Below, in pieces: positions 875 through 63,735 of a stretch of DNA of 64,000 bases. Position numbers and translations under genes: made by a program. Each line of letters opens with the position of its first letter. Within the stretch, counting starts at the first letter, position 1. Below the pieces are notes generated by a model. The model ran no database searches, had not been told where the DNA came from, and saw only the letters and a program-made list of their open reading frames with translations. This stretch comes from a virus: the IMG/VR virus record IMGVR_UViG_3300031111_000011, positions 1-64,000 of that record; one strand, written 5' to 3'.

Positions 875-1477
875 GACACACCAAAAACCGGTCCTAATCG
901 GGTCTTATCAGACTTGAGAAGTTGAGTGGGGTTGCGTATAACCAAGCCACGTTGTGAGGGAAACCACAACGGACACGGCGCAAGCCACGTCGCTCTTTTA
1001 CATAGAAGGCCACACGGGATGAGAGGCACAGGGGAAACGGTGCCAGCGAGTAAACCCCATCAATAACATCTCACCTCGTGGCGATGACAAAGATCGGCAG
1101 GGATTTCCCCTGGGGAACGGCTACCCGTCAAGGTCTACTTACTCAAGCCTCAACTTGAGACGCCCAAAATAGTGGCTACGTAGATAAACGGTTAGGGCCG
1201 AGAGCCCAAACGATAACAAAACACACTCAACACGACTCACCATAGCTTGCTTACGGAAAAGTAAGGGATGCGGATGGTGGCAAGTTACTTGCCTTAATAT
1301 CCATTGAAAGCGTCATCCATCGGAAAAGTACGGGCTTCCTGGTGAGTTGTCTCTCCTCTGCTCTCTCATTGGAACATAGAACGGCGTCCCTTTTCATCCC
1401 TTGACATGGTTTCGACTAGGTCATGCGGACAGGATATCACGCCTCGTCGGTCCTTTCGAGGGAGTTGAGGGGAAACC

Positions 1478-1510
1478 AAAGCCCACCATTTAGGTGGTGG
1501 GCTCTGTTTT
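1478..1510 (+). terminator. rho-independent terminator (agcccaccat/ggtggtgggct + tctgtttt)
   Basis: 10-bp stem and T-tract just upstream of the first CDS; would end a non-coding transcript from the 880-1510 region. Confidence 0.6.
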
Positions 1511-3438: not shown

Positions 3439-3831
3439 ATGGGACGAAGCGTAAGCACACCACCGAATTGCGAGGCCGTGGCCTACCAGCACATGGACTT
3501 TGAGGATGAAATCGACTGGGAAATGTTCGTTGAGGACATCCGCTTCATTGCCACCTCACTCTGGCCGTCTCTGGATGAGACGGACGAATGGGTGGGCCGT
3601 GAGGACCACGCACTCCTTGAGAATCAGCACTGCTACATCGGGGTGAGTGAGTACTGTGGACTCATCGCCATCTGGCTCCAGGTCAAGGAGGACATGAACA
3701 ACGATCATCCGGAGCTTTCCCGGCACTGGTGTGGTCAGATTAGCAAGCGGTTCGTGGAAACCTTCGGGGAACTGCGGAAGGTTGGAACATTCAGCAACGG
3801 GGAAGCCGTTTTCGAAAGGATCGCCGCATAA
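3439..3831 (+). CDS. hypothetical acidic protein (130 aa)
   Basis: SD taggaggaaatcATG. Confidence 0.55.
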   Translation: MGRSVSTPPNCEAVAYQHMDFEDEIDWEMFVEDIRFIATSLWPSLDETDEWVGREDHALLENQHCYIGVSEYCGLIAIWLQVKEDMNNDHPELSRHWCGQISKRFVETFGELRKVGTFSNGEAVFERIAA

Positions 3832-4010
3832 TGACCACCTATCTCATGTACATCGACTGGATGACCATCGGGTCAGGGCTGCTTTCTGCCGATGACCTGG
3901 ACTTTCTCACCCTAATGGTGGACCGATCCAGTCAGGTGAAGGTGCTCCTGGCTCAAAGGGATGCAGGAATTCAGAGAATCAGCAACCGATTCACGGGCAT
4001 TAGCCGATAG
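3831..4010 (+). CDS. hypothetical small protein (59 aa)
   Basis: TAATG start-stop overlap; ends with TAG just before an SD. Confidence 0.4.
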   Translation: MTTYLMYIDWMTIGSGLLSADDLDFLTLMVDRSSQVKVLLAQRDAGIQRISNRFTGISR

Positions 4011-7248: not shown

Positions 7249-8028
7249 ATGGAAAAACTCAGAGAGGCAATGTCCAAGGTGCTACGAGACGTAGGCGAAG
7301 GGTACGAACTGTTCTTGCTGGTTACTTACCACAGTCAGACCACTGGGGTCACCATCTTGGACAAGGATCTGACCATCCTCTGGTACAACCCATATGTCCA
7401 AAAATACTTTGGCCTTGAGTTCATTAACACTAATTACCTTGACAGGTTTCCTGGGGAGCAGAGAGAGGCCACGAAGAGTCAACTGCGGCAAGCAGAAAGG
7501 ACCGGGGTCAGTGATCCTGCGCTCCTTCAGCCCCCAGGTGTTGAGATGGTTGTCGAAAGGCGCATCTGGGCAGTCTCAGGCGGGTACATCGCCGCATCCT
7601 ACGACCACACCGTACTCACTCAAGCAGAACAACGCACCAAGGATGTACAGACCACACTGACCCTCTTAGCTGAGGCGCGGGAGGGGCTGATACGGGATGC
7701 CCAACTCAAGACACTGGATATGATGGAAACTCACTGCAAGGCAATCTGCGGCAAATATGGGAACCGAAGCCCGTATGAGTGCAAGTCGAGAAAGAAAGTG
7801 CTGGCTGAGATCCTGGCAGGTAGGCCCAGGCTCCAGACCACACTCACTGACACTGAACTGGAGGTGGCTCGGCTCTACCAAGCGGGTCATCGGAGAAAGG
7901 AGGTTGCCGAGATCCTCGATGTGTCTGAGCATACGGTAAAAAATCATAGTACCTCCATCAGAAAAAAGCTTGGCATGAACAACCCAAGTGTGTCCCTTAT
8001 TGAGTATCTTCAACGGTTTACCTTATAG
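7249..8028 (+). CDS. LuxR/FixJ-family transcriptional regulator with N-terminal PAS-like sensor domain (259 aa)
   Basis: C-terminal HTH TDTELEVARLYQAGHRRKEVAEILDVSEHTVKNHSTSIRKKLGM matches the LuxR-type HTH signature; the N-terminal ~120 aa have PAS-like composition. Confidence 0.7.
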   Translation: MEKLREAMSKVLRDVGEGYELFLLVTYHSQTTGVTILDKDLTILWYNPYVQKYFGLEFINTNYLDRFPGEQREATKSQLRQAERTGVSDPALLQPPGVEMVVERRIWAVSGGYIAASYDHTVLTQAEQRTKDVQTTLTLLAEAREGLIRDAQLKTLDMMETHCKAICGKYGNRSPYECKSRKKVLAEILAGRPRLQTTLTDTELEVARLYQAGHRRKEVAEILDVSEHTVKNHSTSIRKKLGMNNPSVSLIEYLQRFTL

Positions 8029-8906: not shown

Positions 8907-8922
8907 TTCTCATATCTAAGAA
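8907..8922. promoter_or_regulatory. palindromic element TTCTCA-tatc-TAAGAA (family copy 2)
   Basis: Between the terminator and the SD/ATG of 8937. Confidence 0.5.
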
Positions 8923-12890: not shown

Positions 12891-12906
12891 TTATCAAATC
12901 TGAGAA
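12891..12906. promoter_or_regulatory. palindromic element TTATCA-aatc-TGAGAA (family copy 3)
   Basis: Between the terminator and SD aaggagg of 12918. Confidence 0.5.
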
Positions 12907-14449: not shown

Positions 14450-14465
14450 TTCTCACATTTGAGCA
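14450..14465. promoter_or_regulatory. palindromic element TTCTCA-catt-TGAGCA (family copy 4)
   Basis: Immediately upstream of SD taaggagag. Confidence 0.45.
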
Positions 14466-18181: not shown

Positions 18182-18197
18182 TTCTCAAATCTGAGAA
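18182..18197. promoter_or_regulatory. perfect palindromic element TTCTCA-aatc-TGAGAA (family copy 5)
   Basis: 13 nt upstream of SD aaaggagg of 18210. Confidence 0.55.
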
Positions 18198-36107: not shown

Positions 36108-36123
36108 TGCTCACATCTGAGAA
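36108..36123. promoter_or_regulatory. palindromic element TGCTCA-catc-TGAGAA (family copy 7)
   Basis: In the int-structural intergenic region. Confidence 0.45.
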
Positions 36124-36244: not shown

Positions 36245-36260
36245 TTCTCAATATTGAGAA
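36245..36260. promoter_or_regulatory. perfect palindromic element TTCTCA-atat-TGAGAA (family copy 8)
   Basis: Abuts the stop codon of the last minus-strand gene. Confidence 0.5.
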
Positions 36261-36997: not shown

Positions 36998-39900
36998 TTC
37001 GTGACTCCTTCATAGTTTCCTTGATGATGTCGTGACGCTCCAGGATTAACAGGTCGATCTCTTCCCGCTTCTCCTGGGCAGTCATATCCTCATCAAGTTG
37101 GATAGCATCGATTTCCTTATTGATGGCTCTCACCTGTTTCATTGAGGCATTCATCAGTGGTCGGAGTTCGATCTTATCCTGGTTGTTGTCATAGTAGTTG
37201 TCAGCTTCAAGATCATCCTTTGCACTCCAAGATCTGAACGCTGTGTCTACCTCGGCAGCGAGGTCGTAGAACCGTTCGTAGTGCTTGGTGTACCCAGGAG
37301 TGTCGTGTCGCATCATTCCACCATTGAGCAGGTAGTAGTCCTCTTTTACGAGGGCTGGATCGGTTGGGAAGGACATCAGGTGCGGCATCACAATGTGGTC
37401 CGTCAGGGTGAGAGCGAGACGACCCACTGTTGCGAATTGGCTGTTGATGAAGTGGTCAAGGCGCTGTGGTGAAATAAACCCAGTGAGTTTACCAATGCCA
37501 CGAGCGGTCTTGCTGGTGCGGTGAGTCCACTGCATGTCAGGGTCAAGACTCTGTTTGCTCCGACTTACAATAGGAGCCCCCGTGTACCCGTCCTCACCCC
37601 CTTCACCGTCAGTCTGGGCCAGGACTTCCTCCATGAGAGGAGGAAAGCCAACTGCGAAGGTTTCCCGGAGGGTCTTCCAGGCAAACTTACCGACACTACC
37701 GTACTCACCTTCCTGCCAAGCTTCTGCCATGGCAGTTGGGAGTCCACTGAAGATCGCGCCTACCTCGAAAGGCATCGGGATCTGGAAGCGTTCTCCAAAG
37801 GCGTAGACATGGTAGTATCCCCACTTCTGGTGATACGGCAGATCACGATACTTGACCTTACGGTCTTCATCGTCATCGTGTGCCGTGTTCCATGCGTGGA
37901 GTGCCAGGGTCAGAGCCGAGAGCATTGCCCCTTTGTAGAGGATCTGCTTGCGGATCATCCCCAGAGCCCGTTTATCTTTACGGGCTTCACGAGCAAGTTT
38001 GTACAGACCCTGGATTCGAGCGTTGAGGAATGGGACCGTTCTTGTGAATACAGCAACGAATCCACTCTCTCCGCTCAGTCCGAAGTCCAGGATGTCCTTC
38101 GCTTCGAAAGCAGCCTCGAAGGAACTCTTGCCTTGAGCTTTTGTATTCTGGTAGAGGGCAACTCGCGTTGCCGACTCACTGAGCTCCATGAGCTTGCCCA
38201 GTTTACCTTCGCCCTTCATTGCCTTCTTGATTGCCTTCTGAGCACCCAGTGGATTGTCCGCACGGTAGTACCCACCAGAGAACCCACCACCCTGACTCAT
38301 CATCTCGACAACGTCTGGATGATTCCGCAGAGTAGCCCACATCCCCTTAGCCGTATCCACAACAGGAATGAACCCGTCCTTCATCACACCGGTAGCCATG
38401 GTGTCCCTGGTCATGTTTCGAACATGGAACCACGGGTTAGCGGTCACACCAAAGGTGAGCCCTCGCTTGAGTCCACCCATGATCTGGAAGACGGTGTTGT
38501 TCAGCCCCTTATGGTTAAGCTCCGTGAGAGCCTGGAACACATCGTTATCCTCGACCTTATAATACCGGGCCTTACCATCCACCCGAATCGAAATCAGATC
38601 GTTGCGTTTGGCAAGATCCTTCGGGTTACCCAGTACCCTGGTCATGAATGCCGATGTCCCCTTCTTCTCGCTCACCATGCCATTGGCTTTCAGTGAGTTG
38701 TAGAGCTTCTTGCGGGAGATGTTCTTGAGACTCTGGTCGATCAGGTACGTGTAGTTCATGACGAGATTCTCGATAGGATCACCGATCATCCCTTCCTTTT
38801 CACCTTCCTTGAGAGCCTTCACCGTACCCACGAACTTGTCGAGGGCTGTCGGTGCTTGGCTACCAAAGACCCCCTCTTCCTCCAGGTCGAAGACCCGGTT
38901 CAGAGGAATGTACACGTCCTTACGCCATGCCTTTTCCCATTCAGGATTCCAGATACCCGCCTTCCGGCAGAACTCTTTTACCGATTCATTATACTCCTTC
39001 AGGTGAGCCTTGACTTTGTCGTACTCACCGGCCTTGAGTTGATTATCAGCAGCCGCTCTGAGCTTTGCGATCTCAGCGTCAGTGTCGATGCCTTTACCAA
39101 AGATCCCGTCAGCAAACTCGCTACCTTTGACCCGTTTCAGTTCATCCACGGTGTCGGCAACAAGCCGAGCTTTGACGGCTTTCATGGTCTGGGCATCCAT
39201 ACCTTCAAACACACTGAGGAGCCCCTTCGAAGCATCCGGACGAGTAATGACCCAGTGGGTTGCCTTGTTGTACATTGGCTTGCCATGATGCAGGATCGTA
39301 CCCATGATTGCTGGCATCGATTGATGGAGACGACGGGACATGTACGCCGACATCTCAGCACCAACCCCAAGCTTCTCTTCGAGGGTCTTGAGCTTCCGGA
39401 ACCGGTCAACGCCCGTCAGGATTGTCCACTCCTTGAAGGCAGTGGCTGTGTCCACGGGATGACTCACTCCATCCAGGATCTTGGCAGCAGCACCCTTGAT
39501 GGTGTCCATCTTGGTTTTCCCCTCGCTCAGAGCGAGGTTCTTGGTAGCCTCATCCAGATCACGGGCCTTAGAATACTTACCCTTGATCCCTCGATCTTCA
39601 AGATGCTTGCGGTAAAGCTTATCCAACTCACTCTGGTCGCTGTAGAGCTTCTCAGGCAGGTTGAACTTCTTATGGAGTTGACCAATAGGGTCACCACCCG
39701 CCTCTCGTTTGAGGTATTCAAGCGGAGTCAGACCATCATGTTTCCATGGATTTCCTTTCACCTTAGTAGATCGGTGTTCAGTAAGGCCGTACTCGAAGTC
39801 GTATTTAAAGTCCTCCAGCGTTTTTCCTTGGGCTTCGGCAACGACCTTCATCCAGATAGCAGCCTGAACCTCTCTCGGGGACCACTCGTGATCAGTCTCC

Positions 39901-62076: not shown

Positions 62077-62151
62077 TGGAAGGGGCAGAAGGAATCGAAC
62101 CTTCCTGCACAGGTTCAAAGCCTGTTGGTTAAGCCGCTCACCCATACCCCT
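62077..62151 (-). tRNA. tRNA-Gln(TTG)
   Basis: 7-bp acceptor AGGGGTA/TGCCCCT, T-arm GGTTCGATTCC, anticodon loop CTTTGAA, CCA encoded. Confidence 0.7.
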
Positions 62152-62157
62152 ATAAGC

Positions 62158-62232
62158 TGGTCAGGGATGCTGGAATCGAACCAGCCGCCCCAAGCTTCCA
62201 AAGCCCAGGAGACTCCTTGCCGTTATCCCTGA
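62158..62232 (-). tRNA. tRNA-like gene, anticodon uncertain (possibly Pro-TGG); irregular stems
   Basis: Good acceptor TCAGGGA/TCCCTGA and T-arm GCTGG-TTCGATT-CCAGC, but D and anticodon arms pair only with several G-U wobbles; possible pseudo-tRNA. Confidence 0.4.
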
Positions 62233-62243
62233 TGATTTGCAGA

Positions 62244-62318
62244 TGGCTCCAGAACCTGGACTCGAACCAGGATTTCAACGGTTAACAGCCGCGCGTGTTA
62301 CCTTGACACTATTCTGGA
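62244..62318 (-). tRNA. tRNA-Asn(GTT)
   Basis: Acceptor TCCAGAA/TTCTGGA, D-arm GTGT-CAAGGTA-ACAC, anticodon loop CTGTTAA, T-arm CCTGG-TTCGAGT-CCAGG, CCA. Confidence 0.7.
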
Positions 62319-62329
62319 GTGAGGAGAGA

Positions 62330-62406
62330 TGGTTGGAGCGAGAGGATTCGAACCCCCACTTAACGGGTTAAAAGCCCGTTGTGCTAACCGTTGACACTAC
62401 GCTCCA
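62330..62406 (-). tRNA. tRNA-Lys(TTT)
   Basis: Acceptor TGGAGCG/CGCTCCA, anticodon arm ACGGG-CTTTTAA-CCCGT, T-arm GGGGG-TTCGAAT-CCTCT. Confidence 0.75.
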
Positions 62407-62416
62407 ACAAAAAAGA

Positions 62417-62492
62417 TGGTCGCACCACCAGGACTCAAACCTGGGTCTGTCGCTTATCAGGCAACTGTTCTAATCTGTTGAACTATGGTGCA
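62417..62492 (-). tRNA. tRNA-Ile(GAT)
   Basis: D-arm GTTC...GAAC, anticodon arm GTTGC-CTGATAA-GCGAC, T-arm CCAGG-TTTGAGT-CCTGG. Confidence 0.75.
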
Positions 62493-62495
62493 ATG

Positions 62496-62569
62496 TGGCA
62501 CCCCGCTAAGGAATCGAACCCTACCAATGCACCGGGTTGGAACCGGGCCGCACCCATGTGCTGCGAGGT
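62496..62569 (-). tRNA. atypical tRNA (possible Trp-CCA) with truncated D-arm
   Basis: Acceptor ACCTCGC/GCGGGGT (1 G-U), T-arm TAGGG-TTCGATT-CCTTA, candidate anticodon loop TTCCAAC; D-region only CAC-ATGG-GTG. Confidence 0.4.
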
Positions 62570-62583
62570 GTGAGATGTAGAAA

Positions 62584-62659
62584 TGGGGTGAGCGGAGGGA
62601 ATCGAACCCTCTACAACAGGGCCACGACCTGTCGGCTCAACCTTTTGCTCTTCGCCCAC
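62584..62659 (-). tRNA. atypical tRNA (possible His-GTG) with short D-arm
   Basis: Acceptor GTGGGCG/CGCTCAC, T-arm GAGGG-TTCGATT-CCCTC, candidate anticodon arm ACAGG-TCGTGGC-CCTGT (C33); a 6-bp hairpin sits in the downstream spacer. Confidence 0.4.
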
Positions 62660-62696
62660 AGTTGGACCACTCACTAAGAGTGGCTCACCCCACGAA

Positions 62697-62796
62697 ATGG
62701 ACGATGACCGTGGGACTCGAACCCACGCTCCCAAGAGGTGTCTCCCGGCGATCAACCCGTAACTGCCCCCCAGTGTGTTATCCAGCTACACCAGAC
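62697..62796 (-). tRNA. ~100-nt tRNA-like gene with ~25-nt internal insertion (isotype undetermined)
   Basis: Acceptor CGATGTC/GTCATCG (6/7), family D-arm GTGT-AGCTGGATA-ACAC, T-arm GTGGG-TTCGAGT-CCCAC and encoded CCA, but the anticodon/variable region is ~25 nt too long. Confidence 0.4.
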
Positions 62797-62808
62797 ATCG
62801 ATATTTGT

Positions 62809-62883
62809 TGGTACTCCCTGATGGAATCGAACCACCCTCTACTGCTTGTAAGGCAGTCGTTATAGCCACTCTACTAAGGGAGT
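62809..62883 (-). tRNA. tRNA-Val(TAC)
   Basis: Acceptor ACTCCCT/AGGGAGT, anticodon arm ACTGC-CTTACAA-GCAGT, T-arm GGTGG-TTCGATT-CCATC, CCA. Confidence 0.75.
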
Positions 62884-62954
62884 ATGTGCCGGTGGCAGTG
62901 ATTAACGACCTTTGCTCTTATCATCGGGACGGTCATGCGAGGACCGGCAGAAAA

Positions 62955-63028
62955 TGGACTCCCTGAGAGGATTCGAACCTCCATCCAACGGTTCGTAGCC
63001 GAATGCTCATCCGTTGAGCTACAGGGAG
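62955..63028 (-). tRNA. tRNA-Arg(ACG)
   Basis: Acceptor CTCCCTG/CAGGGAG, D-arm GCTC-AACGGAT-GAGC, anticodon loop CTACGAA (3-bp stem + 2 mismatches), T-arm GGAGG-TTCGAAT-CCTCT. Confidence 0.6.
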
Positions 63029-63075
63029 TGAGTTGGTTTTGCCCTAAAAATAGGGGCGTTTTTGTGGCAAAACTA

Positions 63076-63151
63076 TGGTCTGCCTGGGAGGAGTCGAACC
63101 CCCTACTCTGGGGGTAGAAACCCCAAGCTCTGTCCGATGAGCTACAGGCAG
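63076..63151 (-). tRNA. tRNA-Arg(TCT)
   Basis: Acceptor CTGCCTG/CAGGCAG, D-arm GCTC-ATCGGACA-GAGC, anticodon arm TGGGG-TTTCTAC-CCCCA. Confidence 0.75.
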
Positions 63152-63156
63152 TGAAG

Positions 63157-63231
63157 TGGAGCCTCGTGGAGGACTTGAACCCCCGTCCCAAGCTTACAAG
63201 GCACGTATTCTACCAGTTGAACTAACGAGGC
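63157..63231 (-). tRNA. tRNA-Thr(TGT)
   Basis: Acceptor GCCTCGT/ACGAGGC, anticodon loop CTTGTAA, T-arm GGGGG-TTCAAGT-CCTCC, CCA. Confidence 0.7.
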
Positions 63232-63238
63232 AAAGAAG

Positions 63239-63312
63239 TGGAGCGGTCACCAGGAATCGAACCTGGATCTGCCATCGGGGAGACAGCTATGCTACCATTA
63301 CACCATGACTGC
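63239..63312 (-). tRNA. tRNA-Gly(CCC) (tentative)
   Basis: Acceptor GCAGTCA/TGACCGC (1 mismatch), D-arm TG-GTGT-AATGGTA-GCAT, anticodon arm GCTGT-CTCCCCG-ATGGC, T-arm CCAGG-TTCGATT-CCTGG. Confidence 0.55.
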
Positions 63313-63323
63313 TCAAAAATTGA

Positions 63324-63400
63324 TGGAGCGGATACAGGGACTCGAACCCTGACCATCTGGTTGGAAGCCAGATATGCTTGCCGTTGAACACCATACCCGC
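63324..63400 (-). tRNA. tRNA-Gly(TCC)
   Basis: Acceptor GCGGGTA/TATCCGC, anticodon arm TCTGG-CTTCCAA-CCAGA (perfect), T-arm CAGGG-TTCGAGT-CCCTG. Confidence 0.75.
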
Positions 63401-63404
63401 TCAG

Positions 63405-63488
63405 TGAGCCAAGGGGAGACTCGAACTCCCAAACCTTCCAGATCAGGGCCATGGTGACCTGGATATGCACCCTATACACCAGCTTGGC
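63405..63488 (-). tRNA. atypical tRNA-like gene with 17-nt anticodon-region loop (10-nt insertion)
   Basis: Acceptor GCCAAGC/CTTGGC, family D-arm TG-GTGT-ATAGGGT-GCAT, T-arm GGGAG-TTCGAGT-CTCCC; anticodon stem TCCAG/CTGGA closes a 17-nt loop containing CCATGGTGACC. Confidence 0.4.
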
Positions 63489-63496
63489 GTGTTCGA

Positions 63497-63572
63497 TGGT
63501 GGACCAAGAGGGACTCGAACCCTCAGCGTCCTCCTTGCAAGGGAGGAGTGTTCCCGATTACACCACCGGCCC
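63497..63572 (-). tRNA. tRNA-Ala(TGC)
   Basis: Acceptor GGGCCGG/TTGGTCC with G3:U70 Ala identity pair; anticodon arm CCTCC-CTTGCAA-GGAGG; T-arm GAGGG-TTCGAGT-CCCTC; CCA. Confidence 0.75.
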
Positions 63573-63661
63573 ACAGGACAGATTTCCTTTTTGACGTCTT
63601 GGGCCAGGAATACTGTCTAAGAACCCAATGGAACCACAGGGGTATCTCCCCATGGCGGTTT

Positions 63662-63735
63662 TGGCGGTCCATACGGGACTCGAACCCGTCTTGCATGATC
63701 GACAGTCACGCACCTTCCCTGATGGCTAATGGACC
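63662..63735 (-). tRNA. tRNA-Asp(GTC)
   Basis: Acceptor GGTCCAT/ATGGACC, anticodon arm CGTGA-CTGTCGA-TCATG, T-arm ACGGG-TTCGAGT-CCCGT, CCA. Confidence 0.65.

Follow-up and report, generated by a model that had tools for sequence, protein, structure and literature searches.

What is the function of the open reading frame (ORF)-free stretch at positions 880–1541 of the 64,000-nt phage sequence analysed here (the window)? We favour, with moderate confidence, the view that it comprises a promoter and a ~590-nt untranslated leader RNA, which together form the front end of the early operon. Transcription of the stretch into RNA, in the + direction, is very probable. We do not regard it as a gene for a free-standing RNA, and a functional free-standing non-coding RNA (ncRNA) is unsupported. 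A sequence-only reading of this DNA had proposed a small RNA (sRNA), a leader or decoy RNA, or a ribozyme-like element; the leader was among these options and is the one supported here, while a discrete ncRNA is not. The finding is real but largely explained, namely as an unusually long version of the leaders of lambda and T7 type. The proposed unit is composed as follows:

859–874, no strand assigned: 16-bp palindrome TGCTCATATCTGAGAA, copy 1 of the TTCTCA-N4-TGAGAA family, a candidate operator.
905–920, no strand assigned: degenerate palindrome TTATCAGACTTGAGAA, overlapping the −35 hexamer.
914–942, + strand: predicted sigma70-type early promoter (−35 TTGAGA, 914–919; 17-nt spacer; −10 TATAAC, 937–942), start near 949.
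950–971, + strand: 5′-terminal stem-loop CGUUGUG/AGGGAAAC/CACAACG, starting at predicted +1/+2.
972–991, + strand: small hairpin GAC..GGC-GCAA-GCC..GUC with a GNRA-type loop, from minimum-free-energy (MFE) folds and without comparative support.
992–1002, + strand: BoxA-like GCTCTTTTACA, at +43 of the predicted transcript, directly after two small hairpins.
1003–1463, + strand: untranslated leader body, ORF-free, moderately structured, sequence not conserved.
1025–1044, + strand: hairpin GGCAC/AGGGGAAAC/GUGCC, with the second GGGAAAC-containing loop.
1464–1519, + strand: conserved long hairpin of 24–25 bp, in which 1464–1488 pairs with 1495–1519; base GUUGAGGG...CCCUUCAAC.
1528–1533, + strand: Shine-Dalgarno (SD) sequence AAGGAG serving the first early gene, 9 nt 3′ of the hairpin.
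1542–1847, + strand: first early coding sequence (CDS), 101 aa, DUF3574, ATG at 1542.

Under the leader model, the host-type sigma70 promoter, flanked and overlapped by the two operator-like palindromes, would start an RNA near 949 that opens with the 950–971 stem-loop, carries the BoxA-like site at +43, runs untranslated for about 590 nt, and ends in the long hairpin just ahead of the first SD. The 5′ stem-loop may protect the RNA end, and the BoxA-like element would bring in Nus factors of the host and thus keep Rho from halting RNA polymerase on the long untranslated RNA. For the hairpin, the most likely roles are processing of the RNase III type and/or insulation of the first ribosome-binding site; it would thereby separate the leader from the first cistron. 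Processing would leave an mRNA with a defined, structured 5′ end and, as a by-product, a leader fragment of ~0.55 kb.

With TerL and DUF932 as anchors, the early regions of seven related phages were retrieved (L088, L212/L292, L293, L294, L295, L297 and L228); together with the window phage, these are the eight compared throughout. Coding sequence is absent from the stretch. As the sequence-only reading had said, 880–1540 holds no ORF of at least 60 codons on either strand, the largest being 56 aa (1366–1536, − strand) and 55 aa (862–1029, − strand). Its remark that no small ORF here is preceded by an SD also held for + strand ORFs of at least 10 codons, whereas the neighbouring genes all have a strong SD. 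In the seven related contigs, the gene callers likewise left the equivalent stretch empty, and the best tblastx match to the seven leaders had E = 0.3; the search for a protein frame conserved among homologous phages was thus negative. In the source contig, the stretch makes up the 3′ third of 1,644 nt in which no gene is called (L001 8357–10000).

All eight phages have the same order of elements: a promoter with a short RNA and terminator, AT-rich palindromes, a box of the type AAAATT(CC)GTGTG..GTATATA, a G/C hairpin with poly-C, iterons, a sigma70-type promoter, an ORF-free leader (385–640 nt across the group), and finally the SD and first early gene. In L294 and L297, not every one of the middle elements can be made out. 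In the window, the promoter at 914–942 scores 11.0 with a sigma70 position weight matrix, which makes it the top site of 100–1560, and its hexamers match TTGACA/TATAAT at 5/6 and 5/6 positions. Of about 320,000 placements on the + strand of the window, only 51 reach a score of 8 or higher; for comparison, the matrix gives 13.5 for the strong promoter further upstream in this phage. Measured from the end of the best sigma70-like promoter, the first CDS follows at these distances:

Window: 599 nt.
L088: 620 nt.
L294: 589 nt (perfect TTGACA-N17-TATAAT).
L297: 638 nt.
L293: 615 nt (weak promoter).
L295: 519 or 385 nt (two candidates).
L228: about 440 nt (TTGACA-N17-TATAAC; −10 identical to that of the window).

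Five of the eight leaders are hence about 590–640 nt long. No primary-sequence similarity among the leaders was detected by blastn, nhmmer or tblastx, while tRNAs, proteins and a 30-nt DNA box stay alignable in the same relatives. Given the similar promoter distances, leader length is far better conserved than leader sequence.

The long hairpin at the end of the leader is conserved together with its position. Aside from the AT-rich palindrome at 135–196, it is the longest clean hairpin in the 64 kb, and a homologous hairpin lies 20–40 nt upstream of the first start codon in the window phage, L293, L212 and L228, so that half of the eight phages have a long hairpin ahead of the SD. In these four, the stem spans 24–27 bp, long enough for an RNase III-type substrate (at least 20 bp, or two turns), and the fold z-scores are −5.05, −6.96, −4.80 and −4.08, respectively. 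The base reads GUUGUGGG...CCCACAAC in the relatives, giving the family form GUUG(A/U)GGG...CCC(U/A)CAAC. In a three-sequence alignment with 20 pairs, 96.6% of cells are paired and 10/20 pairs show compensatory double changes; none of 500 shuffles was as good, and sliding the 3′ partners by 1–3 columns leaves only about 45% of cells paired. Searching with a covariance model of these three sequences gave a single match in each genome, in every case directly ahead of the first early gene, and recovered L228; the model R1 has a single above-noise site in the window, plus homologous sites in L293, L212/L292 and L228. Exact 24–26-mers of the hairpin are absent from IMG/VR and GTDB genomes, and a search of IMG/VR for the hairpin-base pattern returned only the two contigs already known. 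Since its stability is similar on both strands, the strand of the hairpin was assigned from position and promoter direction rather than energetics; an argument from G-U strand preference was dropped after both strands had been folded. Furthermore, the early operon of L293 contains two intergenic type II hammerheads (Rfam RF02276; 56.3 and 37.1 bits) at 2172–2242 and 3784–3859 (+ strand). Lying between early genes, they make processing of the early polycistronic RNA plausible in this clade.

The sequence-only reading had taken 1478–1510 for a strong intrinsic terminator. Its constituents are real, namely a 10-bp, G+C-rich stem (1480–1503; 6 G-C pairs, 4-nt loop, followed by CTGTTTTCCC) and a T-run, but they form only the tip of the 24–25-bp hairpin. 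The tip flank CUGUUUUCCC has four consecutive U after CUG, and the same bases pair with GGGGAAACCA in the extended 24-bp hairpin, so that the T-run of the supposed terminator lies inside the 3′ arm. The homologous hairpins are followed by CUUAACGAACCC in L293 and UCGGAUCGAAUCC in L212, neither of which is a U-tract; termination is therefore probably not the conserved role of the hairpin. A terminator ahead of the first early start codon would, moreover, block the whole early operon. With the T-tract missing in these two relatives and the hairpin abutting the first gene, the picture of a discrete ncRNA closed by an intrinsic terminator is not supported. More generally, where a G+C-rich stem and T-run lie just upstream of a first gene, a terminator annotation needs a homologue check first.

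At the other end of the predicted transcript, a hairpin starting ~7 nt 3′ of the −10 element is also found in L088, L212, L294, L297 and L228. Untranslated RNA is subject to termination by Rho, and long transcripts that are not translated can be shielded by BoxA (PMC7665894), BoxA/Nus complexes doing so for example on rRNA and CRISPR arrays (PMC7665894; PMC10250234). GCTCTTTTACA matches the gamma-proteobacterial BoxA consensus GYTCTTTAANA (PMC5725501) at 10/11 positions, with T for A at position 8, although this consensus may not be that of the host. Counted from the predicted starts, L228 has a site with no more than one mismatch at +10 (GTTCTTTGACA), L294 has one at +33, and L088 has a two-mismatch site at +55. 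Three of the eight leaders hence have a match of at most one mismatch within +10 to +43, as compared to 0.02 expected in 8 × 60 nt (background 4e-5 per nt, taken across the eight sequences; a post hoc test). Over the whole window, five matches of that stringency stand against 5.3 expected, meaning that the signal is in the position of the motif and not in its presence. Secondarily, we infer a putative anti-Rho/Nus site from this BoxA-like element near the 5′ end.

Several observations weigh against the leader model. The promoter and start site are consensus predictions, and a stricter first-stage scan, which required T at the last −10 position, omitted the 914–942 promoter. The BoxA match is imperfect, its consensus gamma-proteobacterial and the motif test post hoc; four or five of the eight leaders have more than two mismatches, a BoxA-like site being missing from those of L293, L292, L295 and L297. 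The terminal hairpin has no significant counterpart in L088 and L297 (z about 0), and those of L294 and L295 are non-homologous to that of the window. Its − strand is about equally stable in the window and more stable in L293, so energetics do not prove a role as + strand RNA, and in the window the inner stem plus CUGUUUU fits the terminator consensus, which makes partial attenuation possible. Finally, the model does not account for a leader length of ~600 nt.

Alternatively, the stretch could act as DNA, be it as an origin, as part of a genome terminus or packaging region, or as a T7-like spacer that enters first, with the inverted repeat serving as a cruciform or protein site. Though we deem this unlikely, the stretch is contiguous with a 0.8-kb block that looks like an origin or terminus region and contains palindromes, iterons, a poly-C hairpin and a conserved box:

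120–880, no strand assigned: origin- or terminus-like block with repeats, palindromes and a CA-rich strand bias.
135–196: AT-rich palindromes.
286–312: conserved box AAAAATTCCGTGTG..GTATATA, of the AAAATT(CC)GTGTG..GTATATA type, kept in at least five relatives.
341–368: G/C hairpin and poly-C.
368–398: two copies of CAGTATCTGAC.
702–727: GTGTCTCAC iterons.

The contigs of two relatives (L293 and L294) begin or end within this block, and an unconserved body sequence is what a spacer would show. Of the four phages that have the hairpin, two show a stability on the opposite strand that equals or exceeds that on the + strand. T7-like internal virion proteins are encoded by the window phage, and in T7 itself the first ~850 bp are non-coding and promoter-bearing. 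What speaks against a role as DNA is that the promoters aim into the stretch at a conserved distance, that the BoxA-like motifs are orientation-specific and near predicted 5′ ends, and that the + strand z-score is the more negative throughout in L293, L212, L088 and L297. Compensatory evolution of the 25-bp stem, with its variable sequence, likewise points to a folded nucleic acid and not to a sequence-specific protein site, and the recognisable origin-like repeats all lie upstream of 880. The two functions, a DNA-level role and leader transcription, are not mutually exclusive. Used as a relative-finder in IMG/VR, the 14-mer AAAAATTCCGTGTG gave chance matches only, none of those loci encoding a relative.

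Could the stretch instead give rise to a discrete, functional ncRNA of ~0.55–0.6 kb, reaching from near 880–950 to the 1480–1510 hairpin by termination or processing, and serving in trans as a decoy or sponge for a defence system or a host factor, as a scaffold, or as a ribozyme-like element? We consider this improbable, despite some signs of structure. The predicted transcript (949–1545) has a fold z-score of −4.6. For the ORF-free stretch itself, z is −3.9 on the + strand (−2.95 on the − strand, hairpin included in both) and only −2.2 once the terminal hairpin is left out, the latter lying inside the range of 23 same-length coding segments taken from this genome as controls (+1.4 to −6.9, mean about −1 to −1.3). 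The most extreme of these controls, at z = −6.9, was 37500–38130 on the − strand, within the ORF of a 2235-aa protein. Hairpin-free leader bodies fold with + strand z-scores of −3.4 in L293, −3.8 in L212, −4.7 in L088 and −2.8 in L297, and in these four the − strand folds less well, which hints that the nearer relatives are under selection to keep this RNA folded, and perhaps resistant to Rho, though it does not establish one specific conserved fold; the leaders of L294 (+0.6) and L295 (−0.2), in contrast, appear unstructured. Other points in favour of a discrete RNA are the similar leader length in five phages (589–638 nt) despite no sequence identity, the terminator-like tip, which is real in the window, several GNRA-type loops, and the heptamer GGGAAAC, which occurs three times on the + strand (958, 1032 and 1470) as compared to 0.06 expected, twice in hairpin loops. 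This enrichment is not family-wide, and GGGAAAC was dropped as a common motif of the relatives. Large ornate RNAs such as GOLLD and ROOL do occur in phages near tRNA arrays, but a search of 880–1540 with the Rfam 15 covariance models (including GOLLD, ROOL, hammerhead, twister and known leaders) found none at gathering score, and at E ≤ 10 only a 17.8-bit chance match of mir-H20 to the terminal hairpin. The search called for by the sequence-only reading thus turned up no family to back a ribozyme or known sRNA, and hammerheads or other ribozymes were not found in the window. Also weighing against a discrete RNA are the non-conserved T-tract, the unconserved body amid otherwise alignable tRNAs and DNA box, and the immediate proximity to the SD of a first gene that has no promoter of its own.

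The local hairpins listed by the sequence-only reading are all present, with offsets of at most 7 nt: CGTTGTG-agggaaac-CACAACG lies at 950–971 (noted at 943–966), GGCAC/aggggaaac/GTGCC at 1025–1044 (noted at about 1027–1046), and the one at 1279–1293 reads GGCAAG/tta/CTTGCC. So is the direct repeat noted at about 1255 and 1322, in the form CGGAAAAGTA(A/C)GGG at 1254–1267 and 1321–1334. Such small hairpins and two-copy repeats are at chance level, with ~1.6 inverted 11-mers (at most one mismatch) expected in 630 nt by a rough estimate. A long-range pairing between AGTTGAG and CTCAACT had also been suggested; both words exist (920–926 and 1149–1155), but the pairing is not in the MFE fold, and the first word falls within the predicted promoter spacer and is thus probably untranscribed. 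As the leader body lacks sequence conservation, covariation for a complex fold cannot be shown, and alignment of whole leaders by MAFFT and RNAalifold yielded nothing credible outside the terminal hairpin. An enrichment of GGA (CsrA-type) motifs was also discarded, with about 14 copies against about 11 expected, by eye.

A further speculation, which we rate as a long shot, is that the first transcript of these ~60–67-kb podovirus-like phages is a fast-evolving leader RNA of up to ~600 nt that is released at the 25-bp hairpin and acts in trans before any phage protein is made. Such an RNA might soak up Rho or Nus factors, RNases or an RNA-sensing defence system, with the GGGAAAC-loop hairpins as binding modules. 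Least probable is a hidden protein-coding function, in the form of very small ORFs or a decayed gene: early genes of 31–60 aa are frequent in the window phage and its relatives, and + strand ORFs of 20–46 aa do exist at 926–1066, 1078–1158 and 1401–1493, but all such candidates lack an SD, and neither the tblastx comparison nor the gene calls in any relative bear them out.

Turning back to the leader model, the stretch belongs to neither the lambda nor the T7 leader by sequence, and its arrangement is closest to both. In lambda, nutL is located about 200 nt upstream of N, and the intervening leader is highly structured and modulated by RNase III (PMC5725501). Reminiscent of the lambda pL leader are the predicted early promoter with a BoxA-like site within tens of nt beside small hairpins, and the untranslated, structured leader with a long hairpin just upstream of the ribosome-binding site of the first gene. 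In contrast to lambda, the window leader is ~3 times longer (590 nt vs. about 220 nt), its BoxA-like site matches at 10/11 positions, sequence homology is absent, and the phage is lytic and podovirus-like rather than lambdoid. Nor does a lambda-type nut site emerge: there is no demonstrable BoxB with a GNRA-like pentaloop beside the BoxA-like site, the flanking hairpins having 8–9-nt loops or lying 22 nt away, and no recognisable N protein or N homologue was identified. In this context, we note an arginine-rich 31-aa ORF (MSPEQEYKRQRAKILAEIERRQQQQQKERKR; 2086–2181, + strand) with a good SD that is uncalled in the source annotation, N-type antiterminators being arginine-rich.

In T7, the A1/A2/A3 promoters are followed by several hundred untranslated nt and the long R0.3 hairpin immediately before gene 0.3. 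The window shares with this A1–R0.3 leader its place at the start of a podovirus early region and the succession of a (here predicted) host RNA polymerase promoter, untranslated nt, and a hairpin before the first early gene. RNase III cleaves the polycistronic RNAs of T7 at particular hairpins (PMC6938266). These T7 sites are bulged hairpins with characterised cleavage, whereas in the window we can only infer cleavage; unlike in T7, no similar hairpins are found between the downstream genes of the window, and a scan of the window proteins did not turn up a phage RNA polymerase. Leaders of rrn operons and BoxA-protected CRISPR arrays also resemble the window leader in being long untranslated RNAs with a hairpin and a BoxA-like site near the promoter, and in a later RNase III-type helix of 25–40 bp. 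The 5′ strand of the L293/L212 hairpin, GUUGUGGG, resembles boxC, UCUGUGUGGG (PMC10250234), as a resemblance only. In the window, the helix is a local hairpin instead of a leader–trailer helix, the downstream product is mRNA, and the BoxA-like site and the helix are about 460 nt apart rather than 18–19 nt. GOLLD and ROOL are of a similar size (about 0.6 kb) and, like the stretch, are found in phages and near a tRNA array, which here is about 1.5–2 kb away; the stretch differs in that no covariance model matched at the thresholds tried and in that neither sequence nor structure of its body is conserved among relatives.

If true, the leader model implies that this clade opens infection with an unusually long leader that seemingly combines a BoxA-type anti-Rho element with an RNase III-type hairpin, and it offers a concrete, testable scheme of early control for phages that are known only from metagenomes and have never been cultured. 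The hairpin GUUG(A/U)GGG...CCC(U/A)CAAC represents a new conserved RNA motif that could be harnessed to locate the early-operon start in related contigs. About 600 untranslated nt are kept while their sequence drifts freely.

The window covers most of a ~67-kb metagenomic genome of a novel, podovirus-like phage (ENA ERZ27252236 k141_1898663). From 1542 to about 34 kb, the + strand encodes early and replication proteins, including DNA polymerase A, ribonucleotide reductase, NAMPT, a ligase and a LuxR/GerE-PAS regulator, while the late genes on the − strand specify TerL, an SU10/T7-like portal, the major capsid protein, an internal virion protein and the 2235-aa protein. Megablast and blastn (word size 11) of 1–2400 and 100–1545 against 50,697 phage records yielded chance matches only, that is, no nucleotide similarity to deposited phages. 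Capsid identity to the nearest cultured phages is only 35–40%. The TerL proteins of the related metagenomic phages are 50–62% identical, 62% being the best in any collection searched, so there is no close relative; in GTDB genomes, the best TerL match was 46% and gave no clue to the host. Pseudomonas phage Rollin, a cultured distant relative, proved unhelpful, being too divergent and too poorly annotated. As an anchor in IMG/VR, the first early CDS recovered no phage relative. The closest protein matches of this CDS, P0002 and P0003, come from high-GC bacterial contigs, and the closest non-phage homologues of the DUF3574 product are proteins of Streptomyces and other bacteria. The DUF3574 domain is also found in L088, in the fifth gene of the early operon.

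The sequence-only reading had placed the start of the stretch just 3′ of a palindrome, which we confirm at 859–874. Further copies of TTCTCA-N4-TGAGAA are found at 8907–8922, 12891–12906, 14450–14465, 18182–18197, 36108–36123 and 36245–36260, and in four cases the palindrome fits precisely into the gap that separates a T-run terminator from the SD of the following + strand gene. A LuxR/GerE and PAS protein is encoded at 7249–8028, and the palindromes may be putative operators for this protein; alternatively, they may be RNA hairpins or an unusual promoter class. As sigma70 promoters of the genes that follow, they were rejected, as hexamers and spacing do not fit.

Upstream of the origin- or terminus-like block lies another transcription unit, and the genome also carries a tRNA array:

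L001 8090–8576 (window −369 to 117): strong sigma70 promoter TTGACA-N16-TAGAAT, 68-aa ORF, and 3′ element with repeated (A/C)TGCCGG, in that order.
93–117: strong terminator closing this unit.
62077–63735, continuing to L001 7947, − strand: tRNA array with 21 ARAGORN tRNA calls and extra Rfam tRNA matches.

A repeated CTGCCGG element of similar kind lies 3′ of the equivalent promoter in L088 and L212. The tRNA array is situated between TerS and the non-coding block, with small ORFs and structured-looking spacers interspersed. The scanned proteins of the window included no TROVE protein, and the motif CGAAGTAACC..CTCACTGCC is absent from the window. In relatives, a TROVE (Ro60-like) protein is encoded beside the tRNA array (L088 5235–6764, L090 1–452), and L088 and L292 carry four tRNA-like units, each followed by an opposite-strand CGAAGTAACC..CTCACTGCC motif, which are candidate Y-RNA-like partners of this protein.

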